Source: Deltaproteobacteria bacterium (GTDB lineage Bacteria > Desulfobacterota > Binatia > Bin18). From it: 64,000 nucleotides of DNA. The position numbers and the translations under genes were made by a program. The notes beneath the pieces were generated by a model, which was not told where the DNA came from, did no database searches, and saw only the letters and a list, made by a program, of their open reading frames with translations. Shown piece after piece: positions 39,225-61,066 of this stretch. Every line of letters starts with the position of its first letter. Position 1 is the stretch's first letter. The DNA lies in contig SHZE01000003.1 of assembly GCA_009692435.1 (NCBI GenBank), forward strand, positions 797 through 64,796, given 5' to 3'.

Positions 39225-39368
39225 ATGGATACCCAAACACTCATCGTTCTGACATTGATCGTTGTCGCGGCCCTTTATGTAGCTCGTAGCCTGTGGCCTA
39301 GCCGCCGCTCGCGGACCGGATGTCGTTCCTGTCCGCAGAACCGCGATCGCGCGGATGATTACACGTGA
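39225..39368 (+). CDS. FeoB-associated Cys-rich small membrane protein (47 aa; below the ORF-track cutoff)
   Basis: My own translation is MDTQTLIVLTLIVVAALYVARSLWPSRRSRTGCRSCPQNRDRADDYT. It has one TM helix followed by CxxC and sits 72 nt after the feoB stop. Confidence 0.65.
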   Translation: MDTQTLIVLTLIVVAALYVARSLWPSRRSRTGCRSCPQNRDRADDYT

Positions 39369-39495
39369 AACAAGAGCCCACTTTTCTCTGCTCTCCCGAC
39401 TCTCCCTTTCCCCGATTCCCCGTTTCTCCGACTCTTCCCCACCTTGCCCCACTCTTGCGTTGCGCCCAAGTAGCTGGGTATTATCCCGCCCCACC

Positions 39496-40161
39496 ATGTC
39501 TCACTGGTTATTACTGCTCCTCACCTTCCTGCTGCTCCCGTCTTGGAGTTTAGCTGCTGATGACCTGATGGACCAATACACCTCCTTACCCGGGTCTTAT
39601 GTGTTTGTGCGCCGCGAACCCGACGGCGCGGTTGCCAATCGGGTACGAATGGAGGTCTTCGAGGATTTTCTGTGCCCCTCATGCTACCAATTCTCCACGG
39701 AAATCCTTCCGAAGTTGAAAGAAAAATATGGCGAACGACTCGACCTCCGACTCATCGGCTATCCACTCGTGCACGAGGAATCTCGCCTGCCCGCGCGTGC
39801 GTACGTGATCGCCCAGGAAATGGGGCTAGGGGAGCAGATGCAGAAGGAATTGTTCCACGCCCATTTCGAGCAACAGCTTGATACCACGAGTAAAGAGGGA
39901 CTCACGAAAGTCGCGTACAGTATTGGTCTTGACCCGGAACTCCTCCTGAATCGTCTCGATAAGAATGACGGCAGCGCCGAAGTCGACCGCAATCTCGCCC
40001 TCGGCAAAAGCTATCATATTGACGCAGTTCCTGGCGTGATTTTCGACGGTTGGATCTTGCTGAAAGAGATGACCCCACAGAACCTCGAAACAATTATCAC
40101 CGGCTTACTGGAGAAGAAAAAGACACTCCCCAAGGTCACAACCAAGAAACCCCGGAAATAG
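39496..40161 (+). CDS. DsbA-family thiol:disulfide oxidoreductase (secreted)
   Basis: The signal peptide MSHWLLLLLTFLLLPSWSLA starts at ATG 39496. The active site is FLCPSCYQF. The upstream part of the track ORF runs through a repeat arm. Confidence 0.8.
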   Translation: MSHWLLLLLTFLLLPSWSLAADDLMDQYTSLPGSYVFVRREPDGAVANRVRMEVFEDFLCPSCYQFSTEILPKLKEKYGERLDLRLIGYPLVHEESRLPARAYVIAQEMGLGEQMQKELFHAHFEQQLDTTSKEGLTKVAYSIGLDPELLLNRLDKNDGSAEVDRNLALGKSYHIDAVPGVIFDGWILLKEMTPQNLETIITGLLEKKKTLPKVTTKKPRK

Positions 40162-57229: not shown

Positions 57230-57244
57230 GAGACAAAACGCACC

Positions 57245-57320
57245 GGAGAAACGGAGAGCGGGAGAATCGGGGAAAGGAAGAAAACTTTTTCTTTCCTCAC
57301 TCTCCGCTTCTCCGTTTCCG
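57245..57320. repeat. GGAGAAAC/GGAGAATC-word hairpin
   Basis: ggagaaacggagagcgggagaatcggggaaaggaagaaaa faces tttttctttcctcactctccgcttctccgtttccg. Confidence 0.65.
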
Positions 57321-57340: not shown

Positions 57341-57553
57341 ATGGTTAAAGTCTATTGCGACCGTTGCAGCACTGAGGTTGAAAACCTCGACGCCTTATTA
57401 CAGTTCTCGATTGAAGTCACCGAACAGCCGAATCGCACCGCGTGGAGTTGGCACACGGAAGTGTGTCAGGATTGTTTTGTGCTTATGAAAGACGACATTT
57501 CCTCACGCGTCACACAGCCGCCAGAGGATAAAAAGAAAGGACCGAAGAAATAG
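57341..57553 (+). CDS. small zinc-ribbon-like protein (CxxC...CxxC) with Lys-rich tail
   Basis: It has RBS GGGAGG and contains CDRC and CQDC. No family recognised. Confidence 0.5.
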   Translation: MVKVYCDRCSTEVENLDALLQFSIEVTEQPNRTAWSWHTEVCQDCFVLMKDDISSRVTQPPEDKKKGPKK

Positions 57554-57580: not shown

Positions 57581-58201
57581 TTACTTCACACCCAAGAATG
57601 CCAAATCCTGCAAATACTCCTCCATCGGTACCATGCCGATACGCAACCGTTTCCCACCGATAATCACCGTCGGCACCGCCGTCACATAGTACTGGTCACT
57701 CGCCTCTTCGCACTGCTGGCGTACCGAGTCTTGTAGTGCGGGATCGTCAATATCTCGCAGGAACGTCGGCATATCGAGACCAGCCGCGCGTGCCACCGCC
57801 ACGAGATTATCCTTGTCGATCAGACTTTGCCCTTCAATAAAAAATGAACGGTAGAGCGCGGGATGAAAGCGGTGAAATGCCTCCTCGCCTTGCCGTTGTG
57901 CCGCCACTCCAGCTTCGAGGCCCGGCATACTCCAGCGCGGGAATTCTTCTTTCTCCCACATGTTGTAGGTAATACCTTCAGGTTCCGCCATCGCCGAAAT
58001 ACGTTTCCAGGCTTTCTCGACATAGCTGTCCTGAAAGCGGAACGGACTCGGATCATATTGCGGACGAAGGGCGAAGGGATGCCAGCGGATGGAAACGCGG
58101 TCACCAAAGCGTTCTTTGATTTTCTGCAAGCGCACGGCCGCAGGATAACACCAGGGTCACAGGTAGTCGGAGAATTCAACGATTTCGACAGGGCCATCCA
58201 T
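57581..58201 (-). CDS. DsbA/FrnE-like thiol oxidoreductase, candidate selenoprotein (in-frame TGA at 58157..58159 gives a U-P-W-C active site)
   Basis: ATG 58199..58201 follows GGAGG with a 5-nt spacer. The in-frame read is MDGPVEIVEFSDYL-TGA-PWCYPAAVRLQKIKERF..., which continues into track ORF 57581..58135. The TGA replaces the first Cys of the family CPWC motif. Confidence 0.7.
58124..58143 (-). ncRNA. candidate bacterial SECIS hairpin (within the CDS)
   Basis: The mRNA segment CUGCGGCCGUGCGCUUGCAG starts 13 nt after the UGA. It has a 6-bp stem (4 Watson-Crick plus 2 G-U pairs) and a G/U-containing apical loop. It has not been scored with any model. Confidence 0.35.
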
Positions 58202-58225
58202 AAGAACCTCCAGCCCGTGGATCAT

Positions 58226-58987
58226 TTACGAGCCTTGTAAAATGTTCACCACCGCATCATGCACGCGACCATTCGAGATGATCGCATTCCCAGTATAAAT
58301 CGACGGCGAACCGGCAAAATCCGAAAAGCGGCCACCTGCCTCGGTGACAAGAATCTTCGTCGCCGCCACATCCCACGGCTTGATTTCGGGCTCTAGCGTC
58401 ACTTCCGCTTGTCCGCAAATCACGACACTGTGTCCCAGGGCATCGCCAAACCCTCGCTGACGCGCGGTGGCATCAATAAGACGGAGAAACGATCCCCAGC
58501 AGGGCCGCACCTTGAGATCCTTGAGGCCACCATGAATGAGCATCGACTTGGCCAAGTCGTCAACATCGGACACCCGCACCCGCTGGCCATTGGCGAAAGC
58601 CCCCTGCCCTTTCCGCGCAGAGAGCAAGTCGTTGATTGCCGGTGCGGACATCACACCAGCCGTAATCTCGCCCTCTTCTTCCAGTGCGATGAGGGTCGCG
58701 AAGAACGGAATGCCGCGAATGAAATTCTTAGTGCCATCAATAGGATCAATAATCCACCGAGTGTTGACCTGACCAGCACGCTCGCCCATCTCTTCCCCAA
58801 GAAAGCCGTACGCGGGGAAATGCTGGCTAAGAATTTCAATAATCGTCGCTTCGCATTCGCGATCGGCTTTGGTCACCGGGGTGCGGTCGGCTTTGGTCTC
58901 GACCTTGAGATTGGTACGAAAATAATGGAGCGCGATTTCGCCAGCGGCTTTGGCGGCTTCGAGAGCGGCATTCAGTACGTCATCCAT
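58226..58987 (-). CDS. inositol monophosphatase family protein (SuhB/HisN-like)
   Basis: FLGEE, WIIDPIDGTKNF and the C-terminal WD.AA motif are present. I prefer ATG 58987 over TTG 59014. Confidence 0.85.
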   Translation of the reverse strand: MDDVLNAALEAAKAAGEIALHYFRTNLKVETKADRTPVTKADRECEATIIEILSQHFPAYGFLGEEMGERAGQVNTRWIIDPIDGTKNFIRGIPFFATLIALEEEGEITAGVMSAPAINDLLSARKGQGAFANGQRVRVSDVDDLAKSMLIHGGLKDLKVRPCWGSFLRLIDATARQRGFGDALGHSVVICGQAEVTLEPEIKPWDVAATKILVTEAGGRFSDFAGSPSIYTGNAIISNGRVHDAVVNILQGS

Positions 58988-59008: not shown

Positions 59009-59103
59009 GGGCAAAAGGGAAAACGGGGAAAGGGGGAAACGGAAGACAAAAAATGGGTTCTTCCTTTGTCCTTTTACCCTTCGCCCCTTTTACCCGTTTC
59101 GCC
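59009..59103. repeat. GGGAAAAC/GGGGAAAG-word hairpin
   Basis: The purine-only arm (59009..59057) faces the pyrimidine-rich arm (59058..59103). Confidence 0.6.
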
Positions 59104-59906: not shown

Positions 59907-59960
59907 TCCGCTCCTCCTTGTTAAATGAAACCGCCCGCTGTCGCCGGTGAAGAACTGAAC

Positions 59961-60044
59961 CGGGGAATCGGGGATGGGGGGAATCGGGGAAAGAAAAAAG
60001 GCCGTTTGTTGTCTTCTTCCCCGATTCTCCGTTTCTCCGTTTCG
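59961..60044. repeat. GGGGAATC-word hairpin
   Basis: The core gaatcggggaa/ttccccgattc is perfect and is flanked by related words. Confidence 0.65.
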
Positions 60045-60051
60045 TTTTCGA

Positions 60052-60992: not shown

Positions 60993-61066
60993 GAAATCAA
61001 AAGGCAAAAGGCAAAAGTCCCCGCCCTCCCCTCTTCTTCTATTTTTGCCTTTTGCCTTTTGATTTC
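60993..61066. repeat. perfect 24-bp inverted repeat of GGCAAAA words
   Basis: gaaatcaaaaggcaaaaggcaaaa (60993..61016) is the exact reverse complement of 61043..61066, with a 26-nt loop. It lies between two minus-strand genes. Confidence 0.9.

Follow-up and report, generated by a model that had tools for sequence, protein, structure and literature searches.

A DsbA/FrnE-like gene with an in-frame TGA at its catalytic cysteine codon is very probably a selenoprotein gene that is annotated in truncated form

The locus described here lies on the minus strand of the window, by which we mean the whole 64-kb stretch of DNA that was analysed. Read through one TGA, the frame at 57581..58201 gives the proposed coding sequence of a DsbA/FrnE-like selenoprotein with 206 residues, including Sec15, followed by TAA; the delimitation is based on this read-through, on a match to PF01323 and on the architecture of the orthologs. 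A Shine-Dalgarno sequence GGAGG (58211..58207), which is kept in the clade, is separated by the 5-nt spacer TTCTT from the ATG start codon (58201..58199) of Met1, and the N-terminus is conserved from this point whereas the preceding sequence is not. From the ATG the frame reads MDGPVEIVEFSDYL, TGA (58159..58157), PWCYPAAVRLQKIKERF, and it ends at TAA 57583..57581. The TGA, the proposed Sec codon at residue 15, aligns with an invariant nucleophilic Cys, and the minus-strand translation that follows it begins PWCY, so that the redox motif becomes U15-P16-W17-C18 (58148..58159) and aligns to the CPWC of FrnE. Farther downstream, the codon of Pro177 (57671..57673) occupies an invariant alignment column and corresponds to the cis-proline loop (A-V-P-T) of the thioredoxin fold.

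A SECIS-like hairpin with a 7-bp stem and one bulge is formed by the sequence CUGCGGCCGUGCGCUUGCAG (58143..58124), whose first base lies 13 nt 3' of the UGA; its apical loop CGUGC (58136..58132) starts 20 nt 3' of the UGA. The evidence for this element comes from folding, pairing, synonymous constraint and the enrichment of a 9-mer, all of which are considered below. Within the apical loop lies a GTG (58135..58133), the codon of Val23, which is misused as the start of a 184-aa ORF (57581..58135), the only one given here by the mechanical ORF list. The first-pass annotation had placed the GGAGG, the ATG, the TGA and the hairpin at these positions; on the minus strand each of them agrees to the base, and the ORF list bears out its further statement that the 184-aa ORF begins at an internal GTG and lacks the redox motif.

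When U was read as C, Pfam DSBA (PF01323) matched residues 7-200 (E 7.1e-29; 101 bits against a cut-off of 25.6), and the domain therefore runs uninterrupted across the TGA. The Cys-containing homologs also align across it: the TGA stands opposite an invariant Cys in 16 full-length proteins, and both S11-D-Y-L-C-P-W-C18 and P177 are invariant in this alignment. The best sequence match in the PDB was FrnE (5cnw, E 4e-11), with its CPWC opposite U-P-W-C. To place the motif in a fold, we used an AlphaFold model built on P0031, a 53%-identical Cys homolog (pLDDT 88.6). In this model the motif is the loop between a strand (residues 5-11) and a helix (residues 18-31), and the top structural matches were FrnE (TM about 0.7), YjbH and other cytoplasmic DsbA-like proteins. 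Strand 1 already starts at residue 5, which leaves no space for a signal peptide, so that a cytoplasmic protein is expected. The product is thus very probably a small cytoplasmic thiol-disulfide oxidoreductase of the DsbA/FrnE-like type with Sec as its nucleophile.

Relatives of the gene were taken as DNA from genome and metagenome collections (JGI, ENA, NCBI, Logan), from which 100 loci were fetched; a metagenome scan contributed 6 loci and look-ups of exact proteins gave more. Codon 15 was TGA in 25/25 distinct Sec-type sequences and TAA or TAG in none, and the catalytic codon was TGC or TGT in 69 other homologs. The Sec-type set comprised 19 sequences from the window's clade and from Bryobacterales-like contigs and 6 from Rubrobacteraceae. 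Within the window's clade, which is probably Candidatus Binatia (an uncultured soil lineage), the TGA was present in 17 distinct sequences besides the window itself. It was also present in the Bryobacterales-like loci L096, L099 and L100, and in the six Rubrobacteraceae loci, which read DYL-U-PWCF. The carriers span about 60-96% protein identity in independent assemblies, and their reading frame was intact throughout, with no frame disruption at the TGA site.

Three records among the relatives deserve separate mention. The metagenome contig Ga0184640_10029486 (L081) has a second in-frame TGA at codon 82, a TGG to TGA change at a conserved Trp (T-Y-N-M-W); no other relative shares it, and its probable cause is a nonsense mutation or a read error. 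The ENA protein P0040 (204 aa) has an N-terminus out of another frame (…SPTTCD…) and a C-terminal part unrelated to the family, which suggests that its contig carries frameshifts. Lastly, the record L001 (CAMBFS010000034.1), titled 'MAG: Klebsiella pneumoniae', contains the locus with a protein 96% identical to that of the window, which points to a mislabelled or contaminated bin.

With regard to the hairpin, a published model of the bacterial SECIS (bSECIS) specifies a loop of 3-9 nt, a G in the first two loop positions, a spacing of 16-37 nt and an energy of <= -7.5 kcal/mol (PMC13188914, Fig. 2). The window hairpin has a free energy of -7.6 kcal/mol, a loop with G at position 2 followed by U, and a loop spacing of 20 nt, and it agrees with all four bSECIS criteria of PMC13188914, the energy lying just past the threshold. 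In our own implementation, the bSECIS model passed 21/24 Sec forms, 55/69 Cys forms (80%) and 103/300 random window positions (34%); orthologs failing its energy threshold include L004, L083 and L088. We consider the model too permissive, and a positional test for compact hairpins, together with codon statistics, was therefore used instead. The positional test asked for a compact hairpin of <= -5 kcal/mol whose loop starts 18-22 nt after the codon and has a G in its first two positions; it was passed by 22/25 Sec forms (88%), 30/69 Cys forms (43%) and 27/300 random window positions (9%).

Other measures of structure were less specific. Folding energy was rejected as a discriminating test, as that of the 71-nt region did not differ from shuffles (z = 0.2). 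Across 15 sequences, 92% of stem cells in the main register were paired and no two-sided compensatory changes were present there, the substitutions being one-sided (G·U/A-U and G-C/G·U); the covariation score of this register was no better than that of shuffles. This pairing pattern is consistent with a hairpin, and is not proof of one. A search of Rfam, which holds no general bacterial SECIS model, gave no SECIS-type match over the whole window at the gathering threshold or over 57950-58300 at E up to 10.

The codon statistics were more informative. When the gene was scanned in 7-codon windows, the ten lowest in synonymous diversity all began at codons 16-28, and the minimum falls at codons 20-28 (pS 0.44 vs 0.74 in the rest of the gene). 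Where residue 23 is Val, it is encoded by GTG in 23/23 Sec forms, compared with 32/54 Cys forms. The apical 9-mer GCCGUGCGC (as RNA GCCGTGCGC, that is, the loop plus the upper stem) occurs in 20/25 Sec forms vs 2/69 Cys forms. When only sequences encoding Ala-Val-Arg were compared, the 9-mer was present in 20/23 Sec forms and 2/35 Cys forms (Fisher p = 2e-10, uncorrected for phylogeny). One of the two Cys forms that carry it, L008, is sister to a Sec form, and the 9-mer is common to two independently arisen Sec lineages. Sub-lineages with other residues retain a hairpin because their codons change in concert: in L092 and L094 the codons are GCC GCG GAG CGG, which gives a 6-7-bp stem with a GGA loop, and the Rubrobacteraceae pair Gly GGG with Leu CUC in place of the Ala GCR and Leu YUG of the window clade. 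Part of the hairpin is explained by the conserved Ala-Ala-Val-Arg codons, whose complementarity is also found in many Cys forms. Taken at the level of codons, the comparison indicates that a selected RNA hairpin exists 3' of the UGA. The earlier suggestion of a SECIS after the UGA is upheld with qualifications: the element fits the bSECIS model and shows codon-level constraint, but its folding energy is no better than that of shuffles and the model itself is permissive.

We are highly confident, judging from the comparison of sequences, that UGA codon 15 encodes Sec at the catalytic nucleophile. The first-pass annotation, which had read the TGA as Sec at the first Cys of a CXXC motif, would thus be right, and this reading is supported by the conservation of the codon, the alignment with Cys and the selection upstream. 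Translation would start at the ATG at 58201 from the GGAGG 5 nt upstream, as the sequence and its conservation suggest, and the UGA at codon 15 would be decoded as Sec, presumably by a SelB-type factor that carries Sec-tRNASec and binds the hairpin at 58143..58124, with its G-containing apical loop 20 nt past the UGA. In the predicted product, a helical domain is inserted into a thioredoxin fold, and Sec lies at the N-terminus of helix 1, facing the cis-Pro177 loop. From what is known of the family, disulfide exchange or reduction would proceed through a selenenylsulfide between Sec15 and Cys18. The gene would then imply decoding of UGA as Sec in an uncultured soil lineage, probably Candidatus Binatia.

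The machinery and the genetic code bear on the alternative that the UGA is read through without selenium, either by a near-cognate or suppressor tRNA that inserts Trp, Cys or Gly or by a local reassignment. A Pfam scan found no selA, selB or selD among the 54 long ORFs of the window, and none was present in the 100 fetched loci; ARAGORN found no tRNA-Sec in the window or the fetched loci, the sole tRNA of the window being that for Pro. In the literature library searched, no paper was found that links Binatia/Binatota to selenium or selenocysteine. The lack of Sec machinery in these sequences and the thermodynamically unremarkable hairpin would both agree with selenium-free read-through. Against it, the TGA stands exactly opposite the catalytic Cys, which is the signature of Sec/Cys pairs, and the synonymous constraint right after the UGA fits a SECIS. 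The 54 long window ORFs end with TAA (27), TAG (17) and TGA (10), and the use of TGA as a terminator in 10 of them argues for the standard genetic code and against a genome-wide reassignment. In addition, the Rubrobacteraceae share this TGA and include a documented Sec user, Rubrobacter xylanophilus, with five selenoproteins (PMC1794560). Sec users also occur among Acidobacteria (PMC1794560), and the phyla of Rubrobacter and of Acidobacteria both hold lineages with the same TGA form. On balance we consider read-through without selenium improbable, and insertion of Sec remains the preferred reading. When all 54 long ORFs were extended through in-frame TGA codons, no other redox-type context was found in the window. 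As a separate observation, TGA is the least used stop codon in the window despite a G+C of 56%; TGA stops are usually common in genomes of such G+C.

The start site and the sequence upstream of the TGA speak to another possibility, namely that the TGA is a true stop, that the product is the 184-aa protein from the GTG at 58135, and that the 14-codon upstream frame is a leader peptide or untranslated. Every gene caller outputs the GTG-started form, and the GTG is conserved. However, the 184-aa product would be without strand 1 and the entire redox motif, and the GTG at 58135 is not preceded by a ribosome-binding site, whereas a GGAGG or GGAG-like motif lies 5' of the equivalent ATG in 18/18 clade members. 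The L005 sequence has a stop two codons upstream of the ATG, which fixes the start position. Across 17 sequences, the 14 codons 5' of the TGA gave a pN of 0.043 and a pS of 0.79, and codons 41-200 gave 0.163 and 0.74, respectively; dN/dS downstream of the TGA was about 0.06-0.09. These values indicate strong purifying selection on the 14 upstream codons, which are collinear with residues 1-14 of the Cys homologs. They encode the conserved peptide M-D-x-P-I-E-I-[VIL]-E-F-S-D-Y-L with freely varying codons, so that upstream of the TGA conservation is present at the protein level while synonymous sites vary. A plain stop would also be expected to drift among TGA, TAA and TAG, and TGA was observed in all 25 Sec-type sequences. 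Termination at codon 15 is accordingly very improbable.

Least credible is a pseudogene, or a TGA that arose from TGC or TGT (each one base away) by a sequencing or assembly error; it could draw on the extra nonsense codon in the L081 contig, but the comparative data effectively refute it, as the same TGA recurs in independent JGI, ENA, NCBI and Logan assemblies, pN/pS is low on both sides of it and the frame is intact throughout. Conservation of the TGA, upstream selection, start signals, synteny and the standard code together exclude a pseudogene or sequencing error and make the combination of a real stop with a 184-aa product untenable.

Selenoproteins of this general type have been described before. 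DsbA-like UxxC selenoproteins (COG2761/PF01323) were first reported in 2005 from the Sargasso Sea, with 9 sequences (PMC1088965), followed in 2006 by those of Anaeromyxobacter dehalogenans, Desulfovibrio desulfuricans and Desulfotomaculum reducens (PMC1794560), and by 2016 they were known from 41 organisms (PMC5029168). A 2026 review lists a 'DsbA-like protein form 1' (PMC13188914), and UxxC is given for the family in both PMC1088965 and PMC13188914. The window gene resembles this family in its PF01323 domain, in its widespread Cys homologs, in a UxxC motif with Sec first (U15-P-W-C18 is present in the translation) and in a hairpin just 3' of the UGA with G in a small apical loop. It differs from the published members in its lineages, which are that of the window (probably Binatia), a Bryobacterales-like group and Rubrobacteraceae, and its placement in the subfamily is by COG/Pfam assignment and motif. 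We therefore regard the gene as a mis-annotated addition, in lineages not noted before, to a selenoprotein family known since 2005, and it leaves the current understanding of selenoproteins unchanged.

The comparison with FrnE of Deinococcus radiodurans (5cnw, 5xwh) is similarly mixed. The window protein shares with it the absence of a signal peptide, a CPWC-aligned motif and a DsbA fold (the fold being taken from the Cys homolog). In contrast, FrnE has an identity of only about 25%, Cys instead of Sec, and 260 residues. It also has a C-terminal tail with a further Cys (C239S mutant entry 5cp1), whereas the window protein stops at residue 206 after the last helix and has no tail; the longer C-terminal tails of homologs were not conserved in the family alignment. 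The window protein is FrnE-like and not an ortholog of FrnE. For the candidate SECIS, the prototype is the fdhF element of E. coli. The window element is like the bacterial consensus in its location in the coding region right after the UGA, its 5-nt loop, its 7-bp stem and its 20-nt spacing, but it barely passes the energy threshold and its stem is largely complementarity between Ala and Arg codons.

To follow the Sec and Cys forms, we placed 94 distinct sequences of the family on a neighbour-joining tree, on which Fitch parsimony required at least three Sec/Cys changes. The first falls at the base of the Rubrobacteraceae group, the second at the base of the group formed by the window clade and the Bryobacterales-like sequences, and the third, within that second group, leads to the Cys form L008. 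The tree thus indicates that Sec arose at least twice among the sampled sequences. P0083 has TGA, as confirmed on its DNA in L099, and shows 97% identity to P0082, a full-length Cys form with which it has the hairpin in common; this pair represents a very recent single-base Sec/Cys switch. On the Bryobacterales-like contigs, the TGA lies at L099:1478-1480 (and in L100), as against a TGC in P0082 (L008:3034-3036). Sec and Cys versions of the enzyme that are up to 97% identical would make a clean natural pair for gauging the effect of selenium on a DsbA-type active site.

The presence of a correctly placed hairpin in 43% of Cys forms can be attributed to self-complementary Ala/Arg codons, and, as this share compares with 9% of random positions, the family may be predisposed to Cys/Sec switching. 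One could speculate that the Ala-Ala-Val-Arg stretch of FrnE-like genes (GCN GCN GUN CGN, which is self-complementary) acts as a latent SECIS; we hold this to be possible but rather doubtful. If it were true, the family would be a hotspot in which a one-nucleotide change between TGC and TGA swaps Cys and Sec in hosts that have Sec machinery.

In public databases the gene is truncated by gene callers, as had been anticipated: MSQ46957.1, the NCBI protein of identical sequence, has 184 aa and is entered as 'hypothetical protein EXR78_00990 [Deltaproteobacteria bacterium]', and its relatives tell the same story. About 30 close homologs (53-93% identity) are called at 169-188 aa with 82-90% query cover and the same truncation point, and the only full-length calls in this identity range are the Cys forms P0031 and P0036. 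The names given to the fragments are 'hypothetical protein', 'thioredoxin domain-containing protein' or DsbA-family isomerase. Consequently, dozens of database clusters are recorded as fragments of about 184 aa that are without the first strand and the catalytic motif. The NCBIfam selenoprotein models scored below their cut-offs on the window protein (Rcas_1661 family, 38.9 vs 190 bits; PDO_seleno_TRX, 19 vs 185), and the lack of an NCBIfam model for the DsbA-like family may be the reason that annotation pipelines miss the Sec codon.

The gene belongs to a conserved co-directional row, in which a gene of the inositol-monophosphatase family lies 24 nt upstream. The conserved synteny comprises an α/β-hydrolase, a short-chain dehydrogenase, the inositol-monophosphatase-family gene, the DsbA gene and a convergent gene for a TPP enzyme. 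At 57341-57553 (+), a 70-aa ORF convergent to the selenoprotein gene encodes two CxxC pairs (C6-x2-C9 and C42-x2-C45) and no Pfam hit is recorded for it; most relatives have a called small ORF of 70-78 aa at this position. Elsewhere in the window, a second DSBA-domain protein is encoded at 39355-40161 (+) (Pfam E 3e-14), with a C-P-S-C motif and a hydrophobic, signal-like N-terminus, and its gene adjoins MMPL and DUF1329 genes; the product is probably a DsbA that is exported and has no relation to the Sec form. Purine-rich inverted repeats were also observed in intergenic gaps near the locus (the gaps and a 24-nt repeat lie at 57235-57318, 59957-60048, 59021-59048 and 60993-61066). In one type, arms such as GAAACGGAGAGCGGGAGAATCGGGGAA pair with their complement, and the 24-nt inverted repeat at 60993-61066 is perfect and separate from these; the intergenic repeats look like REP-type hairpins or terminators.
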